From NCBI GenBank assembly GCA_050874665.1, contig JBNMLC010000006.1, forward strand, positions 12,930 to 76,929: a DNA stretch of 64,000 nt. The letters are read 5' to 3'. The notes beneath the pieces were generated by a model. That model saw only the letters and a program-made list of their open reading frames with translations, was not told the DNA's origin and ran no database searches. Positions within the stretch are counted from its first letter, which is position 1, and every line of letters begins with the position of its first letter. This DNA is from Lachnospiraceae bacterium. GTDB lineage: Bacteria; Bacillota; Clostridia; Lachnospirales; Lachnospiraceae. Positions 19,051 to 33,764 of the stretch are shown here, piece after piece. The translations under genes and the position numbers were made by a program.

Positions 19051-19135
19051 CTCGTTTCCTCCTCTGACCATTTTACTTATTATATAATAAATAAACAGCA
19101 GTTGCAAGCCGTTTCATGGCAATCATGCAAATTGC

Positions 19136-19552
19136 TCAGATTTGGATTTCAATTTCATGCACTCTTACATTTTTGTCAGAATCAATACCGAAAGCTTTTA
19201 AAACAGGCTGCTCTCTTTCCATCAAAGACAATATTAGATATTCCATCGTCGGATCATACGCTAAACGCTTGTCCTCTTCAGACGGTCTAGACGGTGACTC
19301 CGGATGTGAATGAAAGTTTCCAATCATAGAAAATCCGTTTGCCCGCATATCCTTTACCGCTGCTAATTGTTCCTTCGGATCCATAGAAAAATGTTCATTG
19401 CTGGCATCCATATTAGTAAGCAGATATACTTTTTTAATTGTTTTCACTCCATCTTCAATAGAACCGGCAAGAAGACCACAGGATTCATTTGGCAGTCCTT
19501 CTATGCAATGCTTTAAAATTTGATCATAATCTTCTTTATTGAGTTTCAACAT
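19136..19552 (-). CDS. JAMM/MPN+ metalloprotease (Mec/HcyD/QbsD-like)
   Basis: NESCGLL plus HSHPESPSRPSEED, which fits the JAMM motif HxHx7Sx2D. Last gene of the thiocarboxylate cluster. Confidence 0.8.
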   Translation of the reverse strand: MLKLNKEDYDQILKHCIEGLPNESCGLLAGSIEDGVKTIKKVYLLTNMDASNEHFSMDPKEQLAAVKDMRANGFSMIGNFHSHPESPSRPSEEDKRLAYDPTMEYLILSLMEREQPVLKAFGIDSDKNVRVHEIEIQI

Positions 19553-19577
19553 ATCTGGTATTTCTTCCTTTCCATTT

Positions 19578-20384
19578 CTATTTTTTCATATCGCACTCTG
19601 CCTGCTCGTAGTCAATTAATTCTGTAATGGTTGGATTTTCGCCGCATACTGCACAGTGGCAATCTTTTGGTAATGGTACGGTTCTAAATTGCATTTTTAA
19701 TGCATCATAAGTCAAAAGACGTCCGGTCAGCAAGTCGCCCTGACCAATAATGTACTTCACAGCTTCCATAGCCTGCAGACTTCCGATTACACCACCCATT
19801 GCCCCAATGACACCTGCCTGCTTACATGTCGGCACTGCATCCTTTGGCGGTGGATTCTTAAATACGCAACGATAACATGGACCTTCTCCCGGAACATAAG
19901 TCATCAGTTGTCCCTGGAAACGGATAATTCCCGCATGGGAAAATGGTTTTTTCGCCATAACACATGCATCATTAATCAGGAATTTTGCCGGGAAATTGTC
20001 TGTCCCATCAATAATAAAATCATAGTCTTTCAGAAGTTCCATAATATTTTCAGAAGTTACGAAAGTACGGTAGGTATCTACTTTGATATCCGGATTAATT
20101 GCCAGCATACTTTCTTTTGCTGACTTTACTTTTGCTTTTCCAATGTCTGCTGTAGAATGAATAATCTGTCTTTGCAGATTAGACAAATCCACCTCATCTG
20201 CATCTACAATACCAATATGTCCCACTCCGGCTGCTGCAAGATACATAGCCGCTGGTGCACCCAGACCGCCTGCACCAATAATCAGCACGCTGGCATTTAA
20301 GAGTTTTTTCTGCCCCTTAACACCAACCTCTTTCAATATGATATGGCGTGAATAACGTTCTAACTGTTCGTTCGTAAATGCCAT
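19578..20384 (-). CDS. ThiF/MoeB/HesA family E1-like adenylyltransferase
   Basis: GAGGLGAP nucleotide loop. Two CxxC pairs (CYRC, CAVC). Its start overlaps the stop of the carrier gene (TAATG). Confidence 0.85.
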   Translation of the reverse strand: MAFTNEQLERYSRHIILKEVGVKGQKKLLNASVLIIGAGGLGAPAAMYLAAAGVGHIGIVDADEVDLSNLQRQIIHSTADIGKAKVKSAKESMLAINPDIKVDTYRTFVTSENIMELLKDYDFIIDGTDNFPAKFLINDACVMAKKPFSHAGIIRFQGQLMTYVPGEGPCYRCVFKNPPPKDAVPTCKQAGVIGAMGGVIGSLQAMEAVKYIIGQGDLLTGRLLTYDALKMQFRTVPLPKDCHCAVCGENPTITELIDYEQAECDMKK

Positions 20385-20605
20385 TATCTTGCGCCTCCTC
20401 CCATGAAATACAAGAATTCAATCACATCACCTTCTGCTAACTTTGTTGTATCAAAATCAGCTCTGTCAACAAATTCATCATTTCTTGTCACTGTCACATA
20501 ATCTGCATTTTCCACCTGTTCTTTTTCAATCAAAGTTGTGATATTAATTCCTTCTTCATATTCTTTCTTGTTTCCTGCCACTGTAATTGTCATTTTTCTT
20601 CCCAT
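20384..20605 (-). CDS. ThiS/MoaD-like sulfur carrier protein with a C-terminal GG-AR extension
   Basis: Small beta-grasp-sized ORF ending ...FLYFMGGGAR. Translationally coupled to the E1 gene. An alternative start at 20593 gives MTITVAGN. Confidence 0.7.
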   Translation of the reverse strand: MGRKMTITVAGNKKEYEEGINITTLIEKEQVENADYVTVTRNDEFVDRADFDTTKLAEGDVIEFLYFMGGGAR

Positions 20606-20620
20606 CCTTTTCTTTTCGTT

Positions 20621-20938
20621 TTAAATAATGTCTGCAAATAATTCAAGAATTGCATCCTTTTTTACAGCTCCCTTTGTTCTTGCATATTCTTTTCCCTGAC
20701 TAAATACAATAAGTGTAGGAGCAGCCAGAATATTATATTGTTCTGTCAGTGTTTCTTCATAATTCACATTAACTTTGTAAATATCTATTTTTTCTTCGTA
20801 CTCATCTTCTATATCACCAAGAATTCCTGCCACCATTTTACACGGTACACAAGTATCCGAATAAAAATCTACTAATACTGGCTTTTCTGCCTTTAACACA
20901 AGCGTTTCAAATTCTTCTTTGTTAATTCTCTTTGCCAT
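20621..20938 (-). CDS. thioredoxin family protein (CVPC active site)
   Basis: 105 aa. VDFYSDTCVPCKM... is a thioredoxin-fold pattern. Confidence 0.8.
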   Translation of the reverse strand: MAKRINKEEFETLVLKAEKPVLVDFYSDTCVPCKMVAGILGDIEDEYEEKIDIYKVNVNYEETLTEQYNILAAPTLIVFSQGKEYARTKGAVKKDAILELFADII

Positions 20939-20952
20939 AATCTTTCCTTTCT

Positions 20953-21204
20953 CTACTGCTCCTCTTCTACCTTTCGCACAATAAGAGTATAGGTATCATC
21001 TTCATTTTTGTTTAGCTTTAAAATCTGATGTCCTTCTTCTTTGATACTTCTTGGTACATTTTGAACCGGTTCCCCATCATTCATTCGAATGGCAAGAATC
21101 TGTCCATCTTCTAATTCCTCTAAGGCAACTTTTGCCTTTACAAAAGTAACCGGGCAAACAACATCTGTAATATCTACCGTTTCATCAATTTCAAACTCAG
21201 CCAT
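20953..21204 (-). CDS. TusA/SirA-like sulfurtransferase
   Basis: 83 aa. DITDVVCPVTFVKAKVALEEL carries the conserved Cys of the TusA motif. Confidence 0.75.
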   Translation of the reverse strand: MAEFEIDETVDITDVVCPVTFVKAKVALEELEDGQILAIRMNDGEPVQNVPRSIKEEGHQILKLNKNEDDTYTLIVRKVEEEQ

Positions 21205-22060
21205 GATAAGCCTCCTTTATCTTTTCTATAAATTTTTCTTTTCCTACTCGATCCAGTGTAAATTTAAATCTTTCACCGGCATTTGCATAATCTGCAAAGA
21301 ACTGAATTGCCGCATCTGTAATTCTAAAGAGCTGCTCCTCGTCTGTTACTAACGGCAGTGGTGATTCACCCTTGCTAATGGTATTTCCAAACGTTCCGCC
21401 AAAGGACAGAATATATGCTGACTTGGCATCCCATGCATCTGTTGGACAGGATTTTACACATCTGCCACAATAATTGCATTTATCATAATCCACAACTACT
21501 TTTCCATCGTTAACGGTAATCGCATTGCAGCGACACGCTTTTTCGCAGACACCGCAGCCGATACATTTGTCTTCCACCCACTTTACATCTAGTGCTCCCT
21601 TAATGCCGACATCATTTTCCTCTGCTTTCAGGCAGTTATTCTGACAGCCGGTGACTCCAAATTTGAATTTATGTGGCAGTTCTCTTCCAAAATAGCGGTT
21701 ATTCAATTTTTCAGCAATGTCCTGTGTATTGATATTTCCGCTTGGACAAATTTCATTTCCCTGACAGGCTGTCACTGTTCTGACTCTGGGGCCGCATACC
21801 CCAGGCTGACAACCGCCCTTTGCCAGTTCCTCTTTTACTTCATCTATATCTGCCAGTTTAATAAATGGTATCTCCACGCCTTGTCTGGAGGTTAAATGAA
21901 CATATCCATCGCCGAATTTTTCTGCTACTTCAGCAATCTTTTTCAGGTTTTCTGCTGTAAGTGTTCCACCTACCACCTGTAATCTTAAAGAAAAATTGTT
22001 TTTTTGCTTTTGACGCATAAATCCGCCCTTTTTTAACGTTGAGTAATCTACTGCTCCCAT
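21197..22060 (-). CDS. small siroheme-type sulfite reductase-like protein fused to a 2x[4Fe-4S] ferredoxin domain (AsrC-like)
   Basis: SiR Cys motifs TACQGNEIC (CX5C) and GCQNNC (CX3C). Ferredoxin motifs CIGCGVCEKAC and CNYCGRCVKSCP. Confidence 0.7.
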   Translation of the reverse strand: MGAVDYSTLKKGGFMRQKQKNNFSLRLQVVGGTLTAENLKKIAEVAEKFGDGYVHLTSRQGVEIPFIKLADIDEVKEELAKGGCQPGVCGPRVRTVTACQGNEICPSGNINTQDIAEKLNNRYFGRELPHKFKFGVTGCQNNCLKAEENDVGIKGALDVKWVEDKCIGCGVCEKACRCNAITVNDGKVVVDYDKCNYCGRCVKSCPTDAWDAKSAYILSFGGTFGNTISKGESPLPLVTDEEQLFRITDAAIQFFADYANAGERFKFTLDRVGKEKFIEKIKEAYHG

Positions 22061-22084
22061 ATACGCACTCTCCTTTATGTTTCC

Positions 22085-23320
22085 TTACGCATTTAAAATT
22101 GCCTGTTTAAAATCGGCTTTTAAGTCTTCAATATCCTCTATTCCCACGCTGACACGAATCAGGTCATCATATACACCAGAGGCCTCTCTCTCCTCTTTTG
22201 TCAAATGTAGTGCCAATGTAGATTCTGGATGAATCACCAATGTCTTGGTATCTCCAATATTTGACAATATGTACGGTATCTTTAATCCATTAACGATTTT
22301 GAATGCTCTTTCTTTGCTCCCTGCACGTAATGTAAGAATGGCACCATAACCGTTCTGCATTTGTTTTTTCGCTATTTCATGATATCTGCTGTCTAAAAGT
22401 CCAGGATAATTTACGGTGATTCCTGCCTCCAATGTTGTCAAATACTCCGCAAGCTCTAAAGCATTGGCACATTCTCGTTCCATACGAAGTCCCAGTGTTT
22501 CCAATCCTACACAGTTTAAAAATGCATTTTGCGGGGACAGACAGGCTCCCATATTTCGGAACAAGCCATTTCTCAGCTTCGCAATATATGCCATTTTGCC
22601 AAACTTTAAATATTCCTTCAAACCAGGATAACGTTTAGAATCCCATTGGAAGCTTCCTCCGTCCGTTAAAATTCCACTAATTGCATTACTGCTTCCGTTG
22701 ATATACTTTGAAGATGAATTTACTACAATATCTGCTCCTAATTCTAACGGTCTTGTAAGGTAAGGTGATGCTACCGTATTATCAATAATTAACGGAAGAT
22801 TATGTCTGTGGCTCACCTCTGCAACCGCCGCAATATCTGTGACATCTAGTTTTGGATTTCCTATCGTTTCAGCAAACACTACTCTTGTTTTTTCTGTAAT
22901 GAGTTTTTCAAATTCTTCCGGATCATTTTCTTTTACATAGACTGTTTTAATTCCAAATGCCTCAATATCATGAAGCAAATCTACAGTTCCGCCATACAGA
23001 CCTGCAGCCGCAACAATTTCATCTCCGCTCTGTAAAATATTTAAAAAGGCATTGGTCAATGCTGCCATGCCGGAAGCACATGCAATACTGGCAATTCCTT
23101 TTTCTAACTTTGTTATTTTCTTTTCAAACGCTTCGATGGTAGGATTATTTATTCTTGTATAAGAAAATCCCATTGCTTTATTATCAAATATTTTTTCTAA
23201 TTTTTCCGCACTATCATGGAAGAAGGCGCTGGACTGATAAACCGGTACCATCGTTGCTCCGTAGGGATTATCTTCTTTTATATCATGCAACAGCGATGTG
23301 TTAAATCCAAAATTCTCCAT
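22085..23320 (-). CDS. metY: O-acetylhomoserine sulfhydrylase-type PLP enzyme
   Basis: 411 aa. Cys/Met-metabolism PLP family with a Lys in SSSKYINGS. Confidence 0.85.
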   Translation of the reverse strand: MENFGFNTSLLHDIKEDNPYGATMVPVYQSSAFFHDSAEKLEKIFDNKAMGFSYTRINNPTIEAFEKKITKLEKGIASIACASGMAALTNAFLNILQSGDEIVAAAGLYGGTVDLLHDIEAFGIKTVYVKENDPEEFEKLITEKTRVVFAETIGNPKLDVTDIAAVAEVSHRHNLPLIIDNTVASPYLTRPLELGADIVVNSSSKYINGSSNAISGILTDGGSFQWDSKRYPGLKEYLKFGKMAYIAKLRNGLFRNMGACLSPQNAFLNCVGLETLGLRMERECANALELAEYLTTLEAGITVNYPGLLDSRYHEIAKKQMQNGYGAILTLRAGSKERAFKIVNGLKIPYILSNIGDTKTLVIHPESTLALHLTKEEREASGVYDDLIRVSVGIEDIEDLKADFKQAILNA

Positions 23321-23340
23321 TCTCTTACTCCAATCTCTTT

Positions 23341-24270
23341 TTATTTGTACAATGATGTTGATAAATACCTCTCTCCAGTATCCGGAAGTATTACCACGAT
23401 ATTTTTTCCTTCATTTTCAGGACGTTCTGCCAATTTAATTGCTGCATCTAATGCTGCACCAGAAGAAATCCCCACCATAAGTCCGTCACTGGCTGCAACT
23501 TCTCTGGAACGTTGAAATGCTGCGTTATTTTCTACTTTGATAATCTCATCTACAATGTCTAAACGCATTACCTTTGGCACAAATCCTGCACCGATTCCCT
23601 GTATTGAATGCGGTCCCGGTTTTTCGCCGGATAATACTGCTGAAGTAGCAGGCTCTACAGCAATCACTTTGATTGCAGGATTTTTTTCCTTTAATCCAAG
23701 TCCGGTTCCTGTAATGGTTCCACCCGTTCCCACTGCTGAAACAAAGAAATCAATCTTTCCTGCGGTATCTCTCCAGATTTCTTCTGCTGTAGTTACTTTA
23801 TGAATCTCAGGATTCGCATCATTTTCAAATTGCTGGAGTATCACTGCATTGCCATACTGTTTTTTTAACTCCTGCGCTTTTTCGATTGCGCCTTTCATTC
23901 CTTCGTATCCCGGAGTCAAAACCACTTCTGCTCCCAGTGCCTGTACAATCTTTCTTCTTTCCACACTCATTGTTTCCGGCATAGTAAGAATTAAGTGAAG
24001 CCCCCGGCATGCAGCCGAAAAAGCAAGTCCAATACCTGTATTTCCACTGGTAGGTTCAATCAAAACAGTGTCTTGATTAATCTTTCCTTCTCGAATGCCC
24101 TGTTCAATCATCGCATTCGCTACTCTGTCTTTTACACTTCCTAACGGATTAAAGTATTCTAGTTTTGCTATAATATGTGCTTTCAACTGATGTTCCTGCT
24201 CATAGTTCGTCAGTTCTAAAAGCGGTGTATTACCAATTAGTTCTGTCAAATGACGTGCAATTCCTGCCAT
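23341..24270 (-). CDS. cysK: cysteine synthase (CysK/CysM family)
   Basis: IGNTPLLEL, PTSGNTGIGLA and GIGAGF motifs. 309 aa. Confidence 0.9.
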   Translation of the reverse strand: MAGIARHLTELIGNTPLLELTNYEQEHQLKAHIIAKLEYFNPLGSVKDRVANAMIEQGIREGKINQDTVLIEPTSGNTGIGLAFSAACRGLHLILTMPETMSVERRKIVQALGAEVVLTPGYEGMKGAIEKAQELKKQYGNAVILQQFENDANPEIHKVTTAEEIWRDTAGKIDFFVSAVGTGGTITGTGLGLKEKNPAIKVIAVEPATSAVLSGEKPGPHSIQGIGAGFVPKVMRLDIVDEIIKVENNAAFQRSREVAASDGLMVGISSGAALDAAIKLAERPENEGKNIVVILPDTGERYLSTSLYK

Positions 24271-24300: not shown

Positions 24301-24331
24301 ATCATAATCCCTACTAACCTACTATGTCAAT
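24301..24331 (-). promoter_or_regulatory. sigmaA-type promoter of the cysK-to-JAMM operon
   Basis: Minus strand: ATTGACATAGTAGG..., with TTGACA (24325-24330), an 18-nt spacer and TATGAT (24301-24306). It shares a 14-nt string with the promoter at 26061-26091. Confidence 0.5.
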
Positions 24332-24394: not shown

Positions 24395-24826
24395 CTATAT
24401 AACATAATTATCAATCCCTTGATTTTCCCGCATCAAATCCGCAATCGTAATTCCCTCTAAATATTCATCAATCACCTTTTCTAACCCTTCCCACATTTTA
24501 AGTGTACTACATTCCATTGCCCGTTCACATGTATTCGGCTTATGATCCAGACAGGCAACCGGTGCCAGTGAATTTTCCGTAAGCTTCAAAATACTTCCAA
24601 TGGTATACTGCTCTGGTCGTCTTGCCAGTTTATATCCGCCACCTTTTCCTCTAAGTGAAATAAGAAAGCCATTTCTGCTTAATATCACAACAATCGACTC
24701 TAAATATTTTTCTGAAATTTCCTGACGCTTTGCAATATCCATCAACGGTATAAATTCTCCTGTATTATGTTCTGCCAAATCAATCATAACACGAATGGCA
24801 TATCGTCCCTTTGTTGAAATTTTCAT
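24395..24826 (-). CDS. Rrf2 family transcriptional regulator (CymR-like)
   Basis: MKISTKGRYAIRVMIDLA... wHTH. 143 aa. Overlaps the upstream gene by 4 nt. Confidence 0.85.
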   Translation of the reverse strand: MKISTKGRYAIRVMIDLAEHNTGEFIPLMDIAKRQEISEKYLESIVVILSRNGFLISLRGKGGGYKLARRPEQYTIGSILKLTENSLAPVACLDHKPNTCERAMECSTLKMWEGLEKVIDEYLEGITIADLMRENQGIDNYVI

Positions 24827-25983
24827 ACTTCTTCCTCTTTTCCTTTTTCATAATCATCTAAAAAATTATATACCATGTCATCTTTATGATAGCCTATAAT
24901 GGTATTTAAATTTACATTGTGAACACTTTTAAATATGTTTCCGTCAATCACATCACTGACTTTTCTCATCTGTGCAATCAATTCTTTCATTTCATCACGT
25001 TTAGAACCTTTTGCCCCACCACAGGTAGCACAGTTTTCTGTAAAACGGCAGGCACACTGAATAAACGATAATTTGTTATAATCCCTCCATGCCATAATAG
25101 CTTCCTCTTTTATCATATACAATGGTCGAATCAATTCCATTCCTTCAAAATGATTGCTATGAAGTTTTGGCATCATTGTTTCTATTTTTCCACCATAAAA
25201 CATTCCCATAAGCACAGTTTCAATCATATCATCAAAATGATGCCCTAACGCTATTTTATTACAGCCTAATTCTTTTGCCTTAGAGTAAAGATAACCTCTG
25301 CGCATTCTGGCACATAAATAACATGGGCTTTTGTCTATTTCTGCCACAATATCAAAAATCTGCGTTTCAAAGACCGTCAGCGGAATTCCAAGCAGTTTTG
25401 CATTGTTTTGTATTATCTCCCAGTTATCTGCATTGTACCCCGGATTCATAATAAGAAATATTAACTCAAACGGAATTTTCCCATGTCTTTGCAGCTCCTG
25501 CATCAATTTTGCAAGAAGCATAGAATCCTTTCCTCCAGATATACATACCGCAATTTTATCTCCCTCATTTACTAACTGGTATTCATTCACTGCTTTTGTA
25601 AATTTTCGCCAGATTGGCTTTCGAAATTTTTTGATTATGCTGCGCTCAATTTCTTTTGTTCTCTCTGCATAGCTTTCTTCCTCCATCATACAATCCAGTT
25701 GATATCTAAGATACGCCCGATAACCTCCTTTAATATTTACGCCGTGTATTCCATGTTCTTGTAATATTTCTACCGCCTCTTTGCTCTTTTCTCCCGTATG
25801 ACATAAAACATAAACGGCTTCTGCCTTTGCAAATTGCTGTATATTCTGTTCTATTTCTTCCAGCGGGATATTGATCGCATTTTCTACCGTCCCACGATTG
25901 AAATTGTCTTCACTTCTGATATCTATTAAGAAGCTGTTTCCTTCGTCTAATGTAAGTAATTCTTGTATGGTGATTTCTTCCAT
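24823..25983 (-). CDS. rhodanese domain fused to a TtcA-like PP-loop tRNA thiolase
   Basis: N-terminal rhodanese with active-site loop CHTGEKS. CISGGKDS PP-loop. Cys pairs CYLCARMRRG and CAC. Start set at ATG 25983 (MEEITIQ). The track ORF extends to 26010, where there is no SD. Confidence 0.75.
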   Translation of the reverse strand: MEEITIQELLTLDEGNSFLIDIRSEDNFNRGTVENAINIPLEEIEQNIQQFAKAEAVYVLCHTGEKSKEAVEILQEHGIHGVNIKGGYRAYLRYQLDCMMEEESYAERTKEIERSIIKKFRKPIWRKFTKAVNEYQLVNEGDKIAVCISGGKDSMLLAKLMQELQRHGKIPFELIFLIMNPGYNADNWEIIQNNAKLLGIPLTVFETQIFDIVAEIDKSPCYLCARMRRGYLYSKAKELGCNKIALGHHFDDMIETVLMGMFYGGKIETMMPKLHSNHFEGMELIRPLYMIKEEAIMAWRDYNKLSFIQCACRFTENCATCGGAKGSKRDEMKELIAQMRKVSDVIDGNIFKSVHNVNLNTIIGYHKDDMVYNFLDDYEKGKEEEV

Positions 25984-26060
25984 AATTTTGCACCCACTTT
26001 CTATTGTCATAAATAAAAGACGCCATGCCAGACGTCTTTTATCAGTTCTTTCTCAAAATT

Positions 26061-26091
26061 ATATTACACTTTTTCAGCCTACTATGTCAAT
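26061..26091 (-). promoter_or_regulatory. sigmaA-type promoter of the rhodanese-TtcA/Rrf2 operon
   Basis: Minus strand: TTGACA (26085-26090), an 18-nt spacer and TAATAT (26061-26066). Carries the same ATTGACATAGTAGG string as the cysK promoter. Confidence 0.45.
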
Positions 26092-26303: not shown

Positions 26304-27092
26304 CTAAATATAATACTCAATATTGAGTTCTGAATTTCCTAAAAAGCTTGTAAGTATCTTTTTTCGAATTTCCAAAAACAGATTATTGCTTCGATCCCTT
26401 GGTCTTGAAAGTTTCACCGGTATAATCTCTTTAATTTTTCCCGGTCGTTCTGACAAAATCACAATACGATCACTTAGGAAAATTGCCTCGTCAATGTCAT
26501 GAGTGACCAGCACCATAGTACGCTTTTCGTGCTCCCAAATACGAAGTACCTCGTTCTGCATGTTAATACGAGTAAATGCATCCAAAGCTCCAAAAGGTTC
26601 ATCCAACAACAGTACCTTTGGATTTCCTACTAAAGCTCTTGCAATACTGGCACGCTGTTGCATGCCACCGGAAAGTTGTGCGGGGTATGCATTTTCAAAT
26701 CCTGTTAATCCTACTAAATCAATATGTTCCTGAATTTTTTTCTCATGTTCACTTTTCGGTACATCCTTAGGAATTCCAAATCGTATATTTTTCTCTATGG
26801 TAAGCCATGGATATAATCTCGCTTCCTGAAACACCATCCCCACATCAGCAATCGGTTTTTCTACCTTTCTCGTTCCCACATCAATTTCACCCGAACTCGC
26901 CTTTTCCAATCCTATGATGAGTTTTAATAATGTACTTTTTCCACAGCCACTAGAGCCAACAATACTGACAAATTCTCCTGGCTTAATATCTAAATTAATA
27001 TCTTCTAGTACCTGAATATTTTCTTTCTCTAAAGGGTATATCTTGGACACATTACGAATATGCAGTTCATTCTCCTGTAATTGCTCTGCCAT
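26304..27092 (-). CDS. ABC transporter ATP-binding protein, TauB/SsuB (NitT/TauT) type
   Basis: Walker [10 protein letters not shown], signature LSGGMQQR, Walker B LLLDEPF. ATG at 27092 sits 6 nt after AGGTG. The track ORF starts at GTG 27101. Confidence 0.9.
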
Positions 27093-27101
27093 TTTATTCA
27101 C

Positions 27102-27896
27102 CTACCTTCCCTGCTGAATATAGTTCCAGCGTAATAATCTTTTTTGGAGCTTTACAATCATAAAATCTATTAATAATCCCACAATCCCAATAGTAAACAC
27201 ACCTGCCAATACAACATCTGGCTGGGATAACTCTCTTGCGTAGGTAATCATATAACCAATACCAGAAGATGCAGCCACCATTTCTGCAGCTACGACACAG
27301 GTCCACGCTGTACTGACTCCCAAGCGAATTCCCGTAAAAATAGAAGGCCATGCCGATGGTAAAATAACATTAAAAAGGACTTCTTTCTTATTTTTTTCTA
27401 AGACACGTGCTACTTCTAATAATTTCTTATCTGCGGATAAAATTCCACTGATTGTATTTAATAAAACCGGCCATAAAGTTCCAATAATAATAACTGCAAC
27501 CTTTGATCCTTCACCAATTCCTAACCAGAGAATCAATAGTGGAATCCATGCTATCATTGGTATCGGTCGAAAAATGCTGACTAATGAGCTGAGTATTTTA
27601 TTCAACTTTTTTGACAAACCCATCAGCACACCTGACAGGATTCCTATTGCTGAGCCTAGTGCGAATCCCTTAATTACCCTGCCACCACTTACCAGCAAGT
27701 TTTCTGCCAATTCACCATTACCAATCAATTTTATCAATGTCTCCCCTACCTTAACAGGTGAAGGAAGTATATGCTTATTTAGAATCCCCGTTACGCTACC
27801 TATATACCAGACAAGCAACAGCACAATAGGTGCAACTACTTTCAAGAAAATATTATCTATTCTTTTCTTTATATACATATTATCTTTTTCTTTCAT
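27102..27896 (-). CDS. ABC transporter permease, TauC/SsuC type
   Basis: 264 aa and multi-pass hydrophobic. Lies immediately upstream of the ATPase. Confidence 0.85.
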   Translation of the reverse strand: MKEKDNMYIKKRIDNIFLKVVAPIVLLLVWYIGSVTGILNKHILPSPVKVGETLIKLIGNGELAENLLVSGGRVIKGFALGSAIGILSGVLMGLSKKLNKILSSLVSIFRPIPMIAWIPLLILWLGIGEGSKVAVIIIGTLWPVLLNTISGILSADKKLLEVARVLEKNKKEVLFNVILPSAWPSIFTGIRLGVSTAWTCVVAAEMVAASSGIGYMITYARELSQPDVVLAGVFTIGIVGLLIDFMIVKLQKRLLRWNYIQQGR

Positions 27897-27916
27897 ATAC
27901 GCACATCCTTTATCAT

Positions 27917-28387
27917 TTATGCATCTTTTGCAAGCCTGTCAATATGAACATATAGCGGATGCTTTTCTTTTTCTTCTTTCCGGCGAACCGGATAGCTCTC
28001 CTCTATAACCTCAGTAGGTTCAATATAATAAACAGCTGCCAAGTCATTATTTTCATCTCGCTCCTGAGCTGCAATATAAGCGTCTTCATACTCATGTCCG
28101 GCAATCAGACATTTTTTAGGTATGCCTTTGATCTGATAACTTTTTCTTTCTTTCGTAATTATATTAATTGCGACTTTTTTATCAAACCAAAGTGCATATG
28201 TCACATTTTTATGTGTCTGAGAACTCTCTAAAAGTTCCCAATAACGAATCTGTCCGTCCTCTGTGACTGCGATACTCTCTTTTGCTACTACATGTGGAAT
28301 ACCATGACGATCAATTGTAGCAAACACTTTTACACTTTCTTTATCTTCTATAGCTTCTTTTAATTCTTTACTAATCTCTGCTGCCAT
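27917..28387 (-). CDS. PNPOx-like / split-barrel flavin-binding family protein (module 1)
   Basis: 156 aa. ...VKVFATIDRHGIPHVVAKES... matches the N-terminal pattern of pyridoxamine-phosphate-oxidase-like proteins. Paralogue of 30831-31301. Confidence 0.55.
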   Translation of the reverse strand: MAAEISKELKEAIEDKESVKVFATIDRHGIPHVVAKESIAVTEDGQIRYWELLESSQTHKNVTYALWFDKKVAINIITKERKSYQIKGIPKKCLIAGHEYEDAYIAAQERDENNDLAAVYYIEPTEVIEESYPVRRKEEKEKHPLYVHIDRLAKDA

Positions 28388-28460
28388 AATGACTTCCTCC
28401 TATTTTTTGATAAAGTATCAGCCACTTTACTTAATTGCAAAGCAGCTGATACCTCAAAAT

Positions 28461-29729
28461 TTAATCAATTCTCGCTAAATCCGTATTTGGATGATTTCCG
28501 CATCGGCGATAATCGTCTGTATAAATAGTAAGACCATTCTTCCTTCTCACTTCCGCAAGCCCTAGTGCTAACTGCACATAATATTCTAAAGAAGGTGTTT
28601 TCTGTTTCATAAAGATTGCACCCGGAAGCGTATTCCATACACATTCTGCAAAACTTACCCCATGAGCAGCAATTTCCTCTGCTTCTGCGAGTACTGCCTT
28701 TAATGCTTCCTGCTCATCGGAAAATCCATTTGGCTGTGCAGTTTCTACACCGCCGACAATACCACAATCTACATTTCCACGCCCAAATACCTCCACTGCA
28801 TCATATAGACGGTGTTTCCATTCATCATACCCTACTAGTCTTGCCTTTCCAGGACATACCCAACTAAACAATTCTTTGTTTAATACTTCCAAATCTGTAG
28901 TGTAAGTAGTAATTGCTGTTTCCTCATACATTCTTTGAAGCTGCTTTTTTGAAAATGCACTGGCAACCAGCTTCACTGGAAATTTATCTGTCTTAAATGC
29001 CTTTTCTGCTGCATGAAGTGCCTTAATATACAAGTCAACCTCATCATCAAATATTTTCGCACCACTTAAGGTCGAACCGGCTGTCATATGATAGGAAGCA
29101 TAGCGCCCTTTCTGCTTAATTGCCTCTCGTACTGTCTCTTCGACATTCTGAAACCATGTTTCATTTCGGACATCGCCTTCATCATTGGCACCGCGGTGAG
29201 CTGAAAATAATGCACAATACTTACATCCTTCTTTTGGATTGTCCCAAAAGTGACATTTCGTAGCCGGTGCAATTGTAATTCGCTGTGGTCTTGCAGATGC
29301 CACCAGACGCATCGGTGTCCCATTACTTGTTGTTTTGTCATAAAAGTCCGGTTTTTCCCAAAACCATGCTTCCTCGTAAACTTTATCCTTATCAACAATC
29401 ACAAGTTTGTCATCTACTACATCTAATATATACGGATCACGATATGTCCAATCATATACCTGGGTATGTCCCTGGCAAATCACAGAACCGTCTCTTAAAA
29501 ACAATCCAATCGGTGAAATCTGTTTTCCATGTCCAATCAAATAATCATAAGGCTCTACATGATGTTTCTTAGGGTCTACTTTTACAAAAGCTCTATCTGT
29601 ATAAGCAATTCCTCTCCTGCTCACATCAATTTTCAATGCCACAATCGGCGGAATATCCGGATACTTTTCTAAGACCTGCTCATAGCTAAGTTCTTTTTCC
29701 CGCCATTTTGTTTTATCATTAATGCTCAT
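28461..29729 (-). CDS. uncharacterised Fe-S / radical-SAM-like enzyme with a CX9CX2C triad (module 1)
   Basis: ARPQRITIAPATKCHFWDNPKEGCKYC, then HMTAGSTL (a GGE-like motif). Paralogue of 31312-32565. ATG at 29729; the track ORF starts at GTG 29738. Family not recognised. Confidence 0.5.
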   Translation of the reverse strand: MSINDKTKWREKELSYEQVLEKYPDIPPIVALKIDVSRRGIAYTDRAFVKVDPKKHHVEPYDYLIGHGKQISPIGLFLRDGSVICQGHTQVYDWTYRDPYILDVVDDKLVIVDKDKVYEEAWFWEKPDFYDKTTSNGTPMRLVASARPQRITIAPATKCHFWDNPKEGCKYCALFSAHRGANDEGDVRNETWFQNVEETVREAIKQKGRYASYHMTAGSTLSGAKIFDDEVDLYIKALHAAEKAFKTDKFPVKLVASAFSKKQLQRMYEETAITTYTTDLEVLNKELFSWVCPGKARLVGYDEWKHRLYDAVEVFGRGNVDCGIVGGVETAQPNGFSDEQEALKAVLAEAEEIAAHGVSFAECVWNTLPGAIFMKQKTPSLEYYVQLALGLAEVRRKNGLTIYTDDYRRCGNHPNTDLARID

Positions 29730-29762
29730 TGTTTTCACTCTTTTCTTAATCTAATGGAAACT

Positions 29763-30809
29763 TTATTTTGCTACTGCTTTATCAAGAAAGCTGGTATCAA
29801 TGTGATTTTTAATTTCTTCCTCTGTCAATTCATTTGTAATCATATCATGAGTTTCAAGAAAATCATAAGTCTCTTTTAAATTTTTCTCGTAATCTTCATC
29901 CCATATAATAGTTCTGTCAGCGTCCTTATTCGTATTTTTTACACGTTCTACTTCAAAACCCGAAAACTCAGCAACTACTTCATAAGCCTCTTCTTCATTT
30001 TCTTTAATCCATTGTTCCGCTTTGTACAATGCCTCCACCAATTTTTCTAACTCATCCGGATGTTCCTCAAGAAACTTATTCGATACAACATTATAGGAAT
30101 ATGCCGGATGTTTTGAGCAGTCTGCCACTTTTATAAATCCCTGATTTTCCACCTTGTCATGAATATAATCTGCATTCATTGCAAGATAGCCGTCGATATC
30201 TCCACTTTCAAAAGCTGCATCTGCATCACTTGTAGATGTAATATTTACAATATTAACATCTTTTTCATCAATTCCTGCATCATTTAAAATTCCAATTAAA
30301 GATTTATGAACATATGTACCTACAAATACGCCAATTTTTTTCCCCTTAAAATCATTTACATCAGAAATTCCAGCATTCTCTGGTGAAATAATTCCAATAT
30401 TTTCTCCCTGCTTTGCTGCTCCTGAAACAATAGTAGTTTCCACACCATTACCAATTCCGATAATAATTGGCTGGTCACCGATACCATTTACGAAATCAAT
30501 ATCTCCTGCTATAAATGCCTCATTTGCAGCCGGTCCATTTTCAAATTCTACCAATTCTACCTTTACATTATTCCCCGCAAAAGCTTCATCTAAGAAACCC
30601 TTTTGGTAAGCCACCAGAAACTGATCATTCCAGATAGAAAATGGAAAATATGCAACCCTGATTACTGTTTCTTCTTTATTTTCTGTTGTTTTTGAATCAA
30701 CACCAGTCTGTGTATCCTCTTTTGAAGTACTTGTGCAGCCTGCAAGCACTCCTAAAGATAAAGTAAATACTACTGCCAATGCAAAAAATCTTTTCGCTAT
30801 ATTTTTCAT
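29763..30809 (-). CDS. ABC transporter substrate-binding lipoprotein, NMT1/SsuA-like
   Basis: Signal peptide with lipobox LAGC. 348 aa. Sits between the two enzyme modules. Confidence 0.75.
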   Translation of the reverse strand: MKNIAKRFFALAVVFTLSLGVLAGCTSTSKEDTQTGVDSKTTENKEETVIRVAYFPFSIWNDQFLVAYQKGFLDEAFAGNNVKVELVEFENGPAANEAFIAGDIDFVNGIGDQPIIIGIGNGVETTIVSGAAKQGENIGIISPENAGISDVNDFKGKKIGVFVGTYVHKSLIGILNDAGIDEKDVNIVNITSTSDADAAFESGDIDGYLAMNADYIHDKVENQGFIKVADCSKHPAYSYNVVSNKFLEEHPDELEKLVEALYKAEQWIKENEEEAYEVVAEFSGFEVERVKNTNKDADRTIIWDEDYEKNLKETYDFLETHDMITNELTEEEIKNHIDTSFLDKAVAK

Positions 30810-30830
30810 AAATCATCTCTCCTCTTTTTA

Positions 30831-31301
30831 TTACTCTACACCATACAAGCGGTCTAAATGCTTTAACAATGGATATTTCTTTTCATCTTCTTGTACCCGG
30901 ACAGCAAATGTTTCCTCTTTCACCACTTCCGGTTCAATTGTCCAGATTGCTGCCAAATCTATATCGCCAAGCTTTTCTCGCAAGAAAACATAAGCTTTTT
31001 CAAATTTCTTTCCTGCGGTAACGCTTTTTAATGGTTTTCCCACAATCTCATAACTCTTTCCATGATTTGTCAGAATGTTGACTGCAACTTTTTTATCAAA
31101 CCAGATGCTATGTACAAAGTTCTGGTTATTTCTTGAGCTTTCCAACACTTCATAAAACTCTAAATTTCCTTCTTCATTTACATAAAGACTTCCTTTAAAT
31201 ACTACATGGGGAATTCCATTCTTATCAATTGATGCGACGACTTTTAATGTATCTTTTGCACTGATATATTCTTTTAATTCTTCGCTTATAATGTCTGCCA
31301 T
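30831..31301 (-). CDS. PNPOx-like / split-barrel flavin-binding family protein (module 2)
   Basis: 156 aa. ...LKVVASIDKNGIPHVVFKGS... Shares GIPHVV, WFDKKVA and DLAA strings with 27917-28387. Confidence 0.55.
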   Translation of the reverse strand: MADIISEELKEYISAKDTLKVVASIDKNGIPHVVFKGSLYVNEEGNLEFYEVLESSRNNQNFVHSIWFDKKVAVNILTNHGKSYEIVGKPLKSVTAGKKFEKAYVFLREKLGDIDLAAIWTIEPEVVKEETFAVRVQEDEKKYPLLKHLDRLYGVE

Positions 31302-31311
31302 ATTCTTCCTC

Positions 31312-32565
31312 CTAAACTCTTAGCAAATCCATACCTGGATGTGCACCGCACCTTCTATAATCATCTGTGTATGGATTCACTCCATATTTATGCGATAAAA
31401 TATCAAATTGTCGATAAGTTTTAATAAAATATTCCAAAGATGGTGTATCCTGATTTTGGAATATGGAGCCTGGAGAAGTTCTCCATACATTTGCCGCAAG
31501 TGCAATTCCATGAGATATAATTTCTTCCGCCTGCTCTATTACATTTTTATATGCTTCTTCTTCCGTTGCAAATCCATTCGGTTTTGCAAGTTCAGTTCCT
31601 AAGACTACGCCAGAAGATATATTACCTTTACCAAATATATCTACCGCTGCATACAAACGGCGTTTCCATTCTTCATATCCGATATGTCTTGCTTTTCCAG
31701 GACATATCCAGTCAAATTTTTCTTTATTCAGCACTTCAATATCTGTTGTATACGTCATTAATTTAGTCTCATGGTATAGGCGTTCTAACTGTTTTTCATT
31801 GAATGCAGAAGAAATCAGCTGACTTGGAATACGATCTGCATTGAAATTTTCTCCAATAGCCTGAAGAATTTCAATGTAACCTTCCAGTTCATCATCCAGC
31901 AATTCTTCACCGGAAAGTATCGAACCTCCTGTCAGGAGAATGCTTGAAAATCTTCCTTTTTGTTTCAAAGCCTCTTTCACCGTTTCTGCTATATATTTCA
32001 CCGGATATCTCTCTTCTTTTTCTCCACGCTTTATGTAATTAGGAGCCATCGGGCAATATTTGCATCCTTCTTTGGCTGTATCCCAAAAATGGCACCACTG
32101 GCACATATAAATATCTATTCTCTGAGGTCTTGCAGTTGCATAACGGCTCATTGGTTCCCCATTGGAAGCCTTTTTATCATAAAAATCTGGTTTTTCCCAA
32201 TATCCGACCTCTTCTAATACTTTCCCCTGGTCTGTGATAACAATTTTATCATCCACAACATCCACTATATATGGATCTCTCTGTGCTTTCTCAGGGTCAA
32301 AGTCAAAGTTCGTAATCAGGTAGGAACCATCCCTGAGAGTCAGACTCTCAGGGGCGTAATCCTGTGTCGTTCGAAATCCGGCAATTGTTCCTATATTGAC
32401 TTGATGGATATTAGGGACTATGCGTTCCTTCGCTGCCTGTGTATAAATTACACCTCTCCTCTGCACATCTACCTTCAAAGTCCAAATCGGTGGAACATCC
32501 GGATATTTTTTCAAAACTTCATCTAAGCTTAATTCTTTTTTTCTCCATTCTTTATCTCGTGCCAT
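31312..32565 (-). CDS. uncharacterised Fe-S / radical-SAM-like enzyme with a CX9CX2C triad (module 2)
   Basis: ARPQRIDIYMCQWCHFWDTAKEGCKYC, then LLTGGSILSGEE. Shares WEKPDFYDK, TYTTD.EVLNKE, CPGKAR, TPSLEY and YTDDYRRCG.HP with 28461-29729. Confidence 0.5.
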   Translation of the reverse strand: MARDKEWRKKELSLDEVLKKYPDVPPIWTLKVDVQRRGVIYTQAAKERIVPNIHQVNIGTIAGFRTTQDYAPESLTLRDGSYLITNFDFDPEKAQRDPYIVDVVDDKIVITDQGKVLEEVGYWEKPDFYDKKASNGEPMSRYATARPQRIDIYMCQWCHFWDTAKEGCKYCPMAPNYIKRGEKEERYPVKYIAETVKEALKQKGRFSSILLTGGSILSGEELLDDELEGYIEILQAIGENFNADRIPSQLISSAFNEKQLERLYHETKLMTYTTDIEVLNKEKFDWICPGKARHIGYEEWKRRLYAAVDIFGKGNISSGVVLGTELAKPNGFATEEEAYKNVIEQAEEIISHGIALAANVWRTSPGSIFQNQDTPSLEYFIKTYRQFDILSHKYGVNPYTDDYRRCGAHPGMDLLRV

Positions 32566-32585
32566 ATCCTAGCTTTCTCCTTTTC

Positions 32586-33764
32586 TTACAGATTCTTCTT
32601 AATTTCTTCCACCTTATCCAATCTTTCCCACGGTAAATCAATATCTGTTCTTCCAAAGTGACCATATGCTGCCGTCTGCTTATAAATTGGTCTTCTTAAA
32701 TCTAAGGCATCAATGATTGCTGCCGGTCTTAAATCAAATACCTTTTCGATTACTTCGACAATCTTTTCTTCCTGAACCGTTCCTGTTCCAAAGGTGTCTA
32801 CTGCAATTGATACCGGTTTTGCTACACCGATGGCATAAGCAAGTTCCACTTCTGCTTTCTTTGCAAGCCCCGCTGCTACTAAATTCTTTGCCACCCATCT
32901 TGCTGCGTATGCTGCAGAACGGTCAACCTTTGTCGGATCTTTTCCTGAAAATGCTCCACCGCCGTGACGACCTGTACCACCGTAAGTATCTACAATAATC
33001 TTTCTTCCGGTTAATCCGGCATCCCCCTGTGGTCCTCCAATTACGAAACGTCCAGTTGGATTGACATAATAAATCGTATCTTTATCCAACAGTTCTGCCG
33101 GAATCACTGGTTCGATTACATACTTAATAATGTCCTTGCGAATCTGCTCTAGAGTTATTGCCTCTGCATGCTGGGTAGAAATAACAATGGTATGAACTCT
33201 CTTTACATTATTGTTATCATCAAATTCTACTGTTACCTGTGACTTTCCATCCGGTCTCAAATAAGGAACTGTTCCATCCTTTCTCACCTTTGCCAGTTGC
33301 CTCGTAAGTCTGTGTGCAAAAGAAATTGCCGGTGGCAAGTATTCTGGCGTTTCATCTGTTGCGTATCCAAAGATAATTCCCTGGTCACCAGCACCTGTAC
33401 CAAAATCTTCTGTAGCACCTTCTTGTTTTGATTCATATGCCTTGTCCACGCCAAGTGCGATATCCGGTGACTGTTCATCCAAAGATGTCAGTACTGCAAT
33501 GGAATCTGCATCAAAACCACCAGCACTTCCGTCATAACCAATTTCCCGAATAGTGTCTCTTGCAATCTTCGCAATATCAACATAAGCATTTGTAGATATC
33601 TCTCCAACTACTAATGCCAGCCCGGTTGCAACCGTTGTTTCTGCTGCAACTCTTGCGTTTGGATCTTGTGCAATTAATGCATCTAAAATTGCATCGGATA
33701 CTTGATCCGCAATTTTATCTGGATGTCCTTCTGTTACTGATTCTGATGTAAATAATTTACTCAT
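32586..33764 (-). CDS. metK: S-adenosylmethionine synthetase
   Basis: [19 protein letters not shown] and GGGAFSGKD motifs. 392 aa. Only 20 nt, with no hairpin, before the next gene. Confidence 0.97.

Follow-up and report, generated by a model that had tools for sequence, protein, structure and literature searches.

What do a small carrier protein with two residues beyond its Gly-Gly and a JAMM metalloprotease do among genes of sulfur assimilation? The question is raised by an operon in a 64,000-nucleotide stretch of the genome of a gut-type Lachnospiraceae bacterium (contig JBNMLC010000006.1 of assembly GCA_050874665.1), which we call the window and whose numbering is used here. Eight open reading frames, all on the minus strand and tightly packed, run from 24270 to 19136, and with its flanking signals the operon spans 24330-19093 on the same strand. 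Domains were assigned from Pfam and NCBIfam profile matches, which gave the gene order cysK, metY, a sulfite reductase (Sir)-like gene, tusA, thioredoxin, carrier, E1 and JAMM. These matches and the sequence agree with a preliminary description of the locus, which had listed an eight-gene minus-strand operon including a carrier ending in GGGAR, a TAATG overlap and a JAMM protease. We consider it quite probable that the operon encodes a Lachnospiraceae version of the protein-thiocarboxylate route to homocysteine, with sulfite as the sulfur source. This assignment rests on the domain content, the synteny, the presence of a carrier tail and a JAMM gene at all 52 surveyed loci, the clade of the MetY protein and the placement of the operon in class 4e of known gene neighbourhoods. 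The pathway itself is already known, and the window holds a family-typical variant of it with a thioredoxin.

Class 4e is row 4e of Table 1 in Iyer, Burroughs and Aravind 2006 (PMC1779556), where it is listed for Wolinella, Geobacter and several low-GC Gram-positives including several Clostridia. Its members combine a protein resembling ThiS/MoaD, a JAB protein, a rhodanese-less E1, a SirA, a sulfite reductase, an O-acetylhomoserine sulfhydrylase and sulfate-activation genes (PMC1779556). Every core component of the class, including SirA (TusA) and the rhodanese-less E1, is present in the window's operon, which bears out the earlier proposal of an HcyS-type protein-thiocarboxylate cluster. The operon differs from the class in its unlinked sulfate-activation genes and in its thioredoxin, a word with 0 occurrences in PMC1779556. 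The protein-thiocarboxylate-dependent methionine pathway of Wolinella is cited in PMC5764234, according to which the carrier-thiocarboxylate methionine pathway was absent from KEGG and MetaCyc as of 2017. The Wolinella MetY uses the carrier-protein thiocarboxylate, not bisulfide (PMC8191291).

The HcyS/HcyF/HcyD/MetY/Sir system of Wolinella succinogenes resembles the operon in that a carrier with one or more residues after Gly-Gly, a JAMM protein, a rhodanese-less ThiF/MoeB-type E1, a Sir and a MetY are clustered. The steps of its mechanism were reportedly worked out by Krishnamoorthy and Begley and by Tran and colleagues, both in 2011. In the window, by contrast, Sir is small and Fsr-like and carries a ferredoxin insert, an atypical thioredoxin and a canonical cysK belong to the operon, the genes for sulfate activation lie on a different contig and MetY is not specifically close to the Wolinella enzyme (PDB entry 3RI6). 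The tails differ as well: that of Wolinella HcyS is one Ala, whereas two residues, Ala-Arg, are found here.

To place the operon among its relatives, the JAMM protein was searched against 401 genomes sampled across the phylum and against 251 genera from the window's family. Relatives were found in 59/401 genomes and 30/251 genera, the window's own genome being counted. About 20 kb around each match was then compared by mapping the window proteins to all open reading frames with phmmer. The resulting survey set consists of 52 loci in which carrier and E1 genes are neighbours, 24 from the window's family and 28 from elsewhere in the phylum. Sir is a partner in at least 47 of these loci, TusA in at least 46 and MetY in at least 34; these counts are lower bounds, several contigs ending inside the cluster. 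The JAMM gene is present in 52/52. The pan-phylum gene order is carrier-E1-JAMM-sir-tusA-metY. In two genomes of the window's family a second, divergent set was also seen (L094:527-6300 and L100:15067-19600), with a weak JAMM match (32-37 bits), an E1 of 485-488 residues and a protein of 538-546 residues that matches MetY weakly.

The carrier gene (20384-20605) encodes a ThiS/MoaD-type protein (PF02597, 40.5 bits; TIGR01683, 62.5 bits). Its true start is probably at 20593, giving 69 residues, and not at 20605, because most relatives are 69 residues long and begin at the window's Met5. The protein aligns over its full length with the solved beta-grasp ThiS structures 2K5P/3CWI (E = 1e-13) and shares their EFLYFMGGG end, so the fold is the one that the preliminary description had supposed; a protein lacking it, which that description had named as evidence against itself, was not found. 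The 3' end of the gene reads GGA GGA GGC GCA AGA TAATG. The carrier thus ends in GGG-AR, and its stop codon overlaps the E1 start by one base. The Ala-Arg codons GCA AGA (20387-20392) encode the predicted propeptide that JAMM would remove. Exactly two residues follow GGG in 120/120 of the closest carrier relatives. Among the surveyed clusters, EFLYFMGGG is followed by one to six residues in 52/52 carriers and by none in 0/52. The tail residues are hypervariable (AR, SR, QL, LL, SC, SF, AY, C, R, Q, K, SNGFFQ, QEIKTL), and the thiamine ThiS of the same genome ends in VGGG, tail-free. A constant core, a hypervariable tail and an ever-present JAMM gene are what a removed propeptide looks like at the sequence level, and the earlier claim of a tailed carrier with a cognate JAMM accordingly holds for every locus surveyed.

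At the carrier-E1 junction (20384-20401), the Gly codons GGAGGAGG form a perfect Shine-Dalgarno sequence 9 nucleotides upstream of the E1 ATG, and the spacer between the two consists of the two tail codons and the stop. Translational coupling to E1 may thus be a further role of the tail. Four loci contain a second, shorter carrier ending in FMGGGC or FMGGGA beside a Sir-like protein of 522-595 residues (L027:3704-5800, L028:3657-5700, L032:14273-16300 and L033:14311-16500). These second carriers lie a few kilobases from the main carrier-E1-JAMM-sir-tusA set, which gives two carriers for one E1 and one JAMM.

Besides JAMM (19136-19552; 138 residues; PF14464, 79 bits), the genome has no good Prok-JAB gene. 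The protein has the complete JAMM/MPN+ zinc-protease motif, as read from the translation (E23, H81-x-H83-x7-S91-x2-D94), and matches a solved orthologue, 2KKS, at 154 bits. The carrier and JAMM families are thus each directly represented by solved structures, 2K5P/3CWI ('thiamine-biosynthesis protein ThiS') and 2KKS ('uncharacterized protein') respectively; these come from structural genomics and have no assigned function in the homocysteine pathway. The adenylating E1 (19578-20384; 268 residues; PF00899, 296 bits) has MoeB and ThiF as its best named models and aligns end to end with E. coli MoeB, an alignment that takes in both CxxC zinc pairs and the loop Cys187. It also has a GAGGLG motif and a C-terminal Cys264. 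Since its alignment covers positions 15-271 of the 392 in the MoeZ model and stops where the rhodanese would begin, the E1 is, as read from sequence, a MoeZ-type enzyme cut off just before the rhodanese domain. Past the end of E. coli MoeB, in the C-terminal part of the protein (19578-19670 in the window), 48/48 cluster E1s carry the motif P-[TS]-I-x-x-L-I-D-Y-E-Q-x-x-C, which contains Cys264, and the window's E1 ends 4 residues after LIDYEQxxC. Cys141 and Cys187, too, vary little or not at all among cluster E1s.

Two other characterised systems share parts of this arrangement. The QbsE/QbsD/QbsC system of Pseudomonas, which makes thioquinolobactin, has a two-residue tail after Gly-Gly and a JAMM protein, as here; Godert and colleagues are said to have found in 2007 that the QbsE tail is removed by the JAMM protease before adenylation. 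It differs in that QbsC is an E1-rhodanese fusion, the product is a siderophore and Sir, MetY and TusA are uninvolved. In the CysO/MoeZ/CysM/Mec+ system of M. tuberculosis, as in our proposal, a carrier thiocarboxylate goes to a pyridoxal-phosphate-dependent sulfhydrylase and a JAMM protein frees the amino acid. To our knowledge, CysO has no tail. The cysteine synthase of the window is a canonical CysK and not of the CysM type, the conserved partner is MetY, and the E1 is without the rhodanese domain of MoeZ.

The metY gene (22085-23320) encodes an O-acylhomoserine sulfhydrylase of 411 residues (PF01053, 393 bits) and is one of three MetY-like paralogues in the genome, the others being on contigs C5 and C9 (the latter of 437 residues). 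Maximum-likelihood analysis separates the cluster-linked MetYs, the window's among them, from canonical MetYs, including those of C5 and C9, with 100/100 support. Rows labelled 'far' that fall inside the linked clade (L045, L046, L048, L055 and L094) all come from loci that contain the cluster, and L045, L046 and L048 were so labelled since a JAMM fused to Sir went uncounted as JAMM. The separate clade supports a specialised MetY in the operon and, with the synteny, upholds the earlier choice of MetY as the partner enzyme. Membership of a Wolinella-type subfamily was considered and is not supported: when the PDB was searched, 3RI6 came 7th with the window MetY as query and 6th with the profile of the linked clade, sulfide-using MetYs standing above it in both.

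For CysK (23341-24270; 309 residues), the preliminary description allowed that it might be fed by the carrier thiocarboxylate, a suggestion for which we see no specific support. The protein passes the equivalog model for canonical CysK-type O-acetylserine sulfhydrylases (TIGR01139, 427 bits; cut-off 351), and CysM models stay below their cut-offs. With the housekeeping CysK of contig C9 it forms part of a clade with 100% support, apart from the CysK/CysM-like proteins that other lineages encode immediately next to E1 and JAMM. A CysM-like thiocarboxylate user is not supported by these results. Given the equivalog match, the grouping with C9 and the linkage of cysK to the cluster in only 2/24 loci of the family, we read CysK as a predicted ordinary sulfide-using enzyme recruited to the operon. 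It is fairly likely that it would use free sulfide from Sir.

Sir (21197-22060; 287 residues; NIR_SIR_ferr, NIR_SIR and 2x Fer4) consists of siroheme/[4Fe-4S] half-domains into which a 2x[4Fe-4S] ferredoxin is inserted. Among solved structures it comes closest to the C-terminal half of the F420-dependent enzyme Fsr, which is the sulfite-reductase half (7NP8, 148 bits), and 13 cysteines of Sir are invariant in the cluster comparison. The only other NIR_SIR gene in the genome is a stand-alone paralogue of 296 residues on contig C17 (C17:27038-27928), beside genes for a histidine kinase and an asparagine-synthase-like protein and away from any TusA or carrier gene. The Sir stop codon overlaps the start of tusA (20953-21204; 83 residues; PF01206, 73 bits) by 8 nucleotides. 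This TusA/SirA-type sulfur-transfer protein is the only TusA in the genome, and its Cys17 (VVCPVTF) is invariant across cluster TusAs, which share the pattern VVCPxTF. A stand-alone TusA lies directly downstream of the small Sir in 34/48 cases, often with overlapping stop and start codons as here. In several lineages the two are fused into proteins of 760-805 residues with a C-terminal TusA domain. Such fusions, of 764-805 residues and with the conserved Cys kept, stand beside carrier, E1 and JAMM in other families at L029:7484-9778, L031:7521-9851, L037:10405-12819, L040:10311-12728, L044:10308-12674, L049:5218-7626 and L052:8191-10539; Pfam confirmed those of L029, L031 and L044, and the others were recognised by phmmer and reading of the sequence. 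JAMM is also fused to the N-terminus of a small ferredoxin-containing Sir (424 residues; L045:9868-11142, also L046 and L048), and the carriers of these three loci end in GG-YAFA. The Sir-TusA and JAMM-Sir fusions found elsewhere tie parts of the system together physically.

The preliminary description had regarded tusA and the thioredoxin gene as additions to the minimal systems and had proposed profiling them. For TusA this view must be given up. Class 4e neighbourhoods 'always contain a SirA' (PMC1779556), TusA was found cluster-wide (46/52 loci) and it occurs fused to Sir. For the thioredoxin (20621-20938; 105 residues; PF00085, 87 bits) the view stands in part, as the protein lies outside the described system but is standard in the family and not peculiar to this genome. 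It is encoded between tusA and the carrier gene in 17/24 loci of the window's family, compared to 1/28 elsewhere in the phylum. The thioredoxin-bearing operon is thus a lineage-wide variant typical of the window's family, with the gene order metY-sir-tusA-trx-carrier-E1-JAMM. The active site is atypical: it reads D-T-C-V-P-C-K and lacks the canonical Trp, and 19/19 operon thioredoxins show D-[ST]-C-[IVM]-[PA]-C-K, with no Trp as in WCGPC. Two further thioredoxins are encoded in the genome. Our literature searches on TusA or thioredoxin in the carrier-thiocarboxylate homocysteine pathway returned nothing specific, and the thioredoxin is the sole operon component undescribed in the literature searched.

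By analogy with Wolinella, the proteins of the operon would act in the following order. JAMM would remove Ala-Arg and expose the carrier Gly-Gly, and E1 would adenylate the exposed C-terminus. Reduced sulfur from Sir would then turn the acyl-adenylate into the carrier thiocarboxylate, which MetY would add to O-acylhomoserine supplied by MetA. After an S-to-N acyl shift, JAMM would hydrolyse the carrier-homocysteine amide to homocysteine and recycled carrier. MetA and CysE are present in the genome, and metK lies within the window. The sulfite would come from the sulfate-activation cluster of contig C9, and perhaps also from sulfonates taken up by an adjacent SsuA-type importer.

How sulfur would reach the carrier from Sir can be specified with less confidence. 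SirA/TusA has been proposed as a replacement for rhodanese (PMC1779556), which fits an E1 cut off just before its rhodanese. We see about an even chance that Cys17 of TusA replaces the missing rhodanese here, carrying sulfur between Sir and the E1-carrier complex. The operon thioredoxin could reduce the resulting acyl-disulfide, of the carrier with TusA (carrier-S-S-TusA) or with E1, or else a TusA persulfide. This role is chemically reasonable and purely conjectural, and we regard it as possible though somewhat doubtful. A stricter version, in which sulfur stays bound to protein all the way from sulfite to homocysteine, appears unlikely to us. Sir would pass reduced sulfur to TusA Cys17 as a persulfide, in the way that DsrAB hands reduced sulfur to DsrC; the TusA persulfide would attack the carrier acyl-adenylate on the rhodanese-less E1; and the Trp-less thioredoxin would resolve the acyl-disulfide to the thiocarboxylate. 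If this relay were true, TusA and thioredoxin would be obligatory catalytic parts, and the in-vitro Wolinella scheme with free bisulfide would be a bypass.

Several observations weigh against the assignment to the protein-thiocarboxylate route. As a ribosome-binding site for E1, GGAGGAGG could retain the tail for a reason other than processing. Sir is a small Fsr-like enzyme and may differ in type from that of Wolinella. A profile of 30 linked MetYs scores the sulfide-using enzymes 8SF5 (516 bits) and Thermotoga 7KB0 (513 bits) above Wolinella 3RI6 (434 bits), and the operon MetY may accept free sulfide too. There is also no convincing signal in the cysteines that would mark operons with thioredoxin against those without it and so point to the target of the thioredoxin; only Sir C84 (53% vs 4%) and MetY C81 (100% vs 50%) differ. 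The MetY scores would be expected if Sir simply freed sulfide for both MetY and CysK while carrier, E1, JAMM and TusA served another thiolation, of a cofactor or tRNA, or buffered sulfide, and the canonical sulfide-type CysK and a rhodanese-TtcA tRNA thiolase gene just upstream point the same way. However, the linkage of MetY with carrier, E1 and JAMM recurs in many families of the phylum, and the linked MetYs form a clade apart from the canonical MetYs of the same genomes. Two other MetY paralogues in the genome could handle free sulfide, and the cluster has no conserved gene for another thiolation target. We therefore think this explanation rather improbable.

The names given by profile models and databases suggest two further functions. 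The best NCBIfam match of JAMM is the haloarchaeal desampylase (80.8 bits), and E1 matches UbaA, the SAMP-activating E1, at 338.8 bits, as if the carrier were a ubiquitin-like modifier of the archaeal SAMP/UbaA type that E1 conjugates and JAMM deconjugates. Neither score reaches its curated cut-off (130 and 450 respectively), the genes belong to an operon for sulfur assimilation in which Sir, TusA and MetY are conserved partners, and E2/E3-like or target genes are not present. A modifier function, which would be compatible with a sulfur-carrier role and does not exclude it, is in our view very improbable. Thiamine synthesis (ThiS/ThiF) or molybdopterin synthesis (MoaD/MoeB) is what the annotations imply: the carrier exceeds the TIGR01683 ThiS cut-off of 37.45, the best models of E1 are those noted above and carrier relatives are publicly annotated as 'sulfur carrier protein ThiS'. 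Yet a separate canonical thiS-thiF-thiG-thiH cluster on contig C7, without a JAB neighbour, encodes the tail-free ThiS, and MoaE (PF02391) and MoaA (PF06463) gave no match in this 3.18-Mb, 99.94%-complete genome. These findings led us to reject a thiamine and a molybdopterin role for the operon respectively, and for the same reasons 'ThiS' and 'MoeB' are family names here, not functions. JAB genes are, moreover, never found in thiamine or molybdenum cofactor operons (PMC1779556). The thiamine/molybdopterin reading is largely refuted, and we give it hardly any credence.

Under the protein-thiocarboxylate route, sulfite has to be supplied to Sir. Contig C9 carries sulfate ATP-binding cassette (ABC) transporter genes, an AprA-like adenylylsulfate (APS) reductase with a small ferredoxin, CysD and CysN/C, together with the second cysK, a second Rrf2 regulator and a second metY; it has no sulfite reductase. 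Further upstream in the window, a minus-strand block (26304-33764) lists as metK, radical-SAM, PNPOx-like, SsuA-family, second radical-SAM, second PNPOx-like, ABC permease and ABC ATPase genes. The SsuA-family sulfonate-binding protein matches TIGR01728 at 165.5 bits. The radical-SAM proteins occur in variants of 417 residues (NF045502, 185 bits) and 425 residues (182 bits), and each is paired with one of two PNPOx-like proteins of 156 residues. These duplicated pairs within a sulfonate importer are candidates for an anaerobic release of sulfite that would feed the operon Sir.

The flanks of the operon carry recognisable transcription signals. A promoter-like site directly before cysK (24301-24330, TTGACA-18-TATGAT) has 11/12 matches and is the best in 9.5 kb, and a terminator-like hairpin follows the JAMM stop codon (19093-19114). 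An Rfam scan found no riboswitch, T-box or other Rfam element ahead of the operon. The 14-mer ATTGACATAGTAGG holds the -35 box and has 2 exact copies in the whole genome, both on the minus strand, at 24317-24330 in the cysK promoter and at 26077-26090 in the promoter of a rhodanese-TtcA/Rrf2 gene pair. Another copy with 2 mismatches lies about 86 nucleotides upstream of the second cysK (C9:46270). This distribution is compatible with a putative shared CymR-like operator. Just upstream of the operon, an Rrf2-family (CymR/IscR-like) gene, identified by profile matches (24395-24826), encodes the predicted and probable regulator; Rrf2 genes also lie near the cluster in L014, L076, L077 and L078. 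The rhodanese-TtcA fusion gene (24823-26010), which resembles a PP-loop tRNA 2-thiocytidine synthetase (TtcA model 206 bits, below cut-off), overlaps the Rrf2 gene by 4 nucleotides, and the pair is also found upstream of the operon in the closest relative, L014.

The databases still name these genes ThiS, MoeB and 'M67 peptidase', so that the methionine prototrophy of abundant gut Lachnospiraceae is easily mis-predicted. A carrier with EFLYFMGGG and a tail of one to six residues, an E1 ending in PTIxxLIDYEQxxC, a TusA with VVCPxTF and the distinct MetY clade can serve as diagnostic markers of the system. The conserved adjacency and fusion of Sir and TusA, together with the family-wide thioredoxin, direct attention to the passage of sulfur from Sir to the carrier in vivo.

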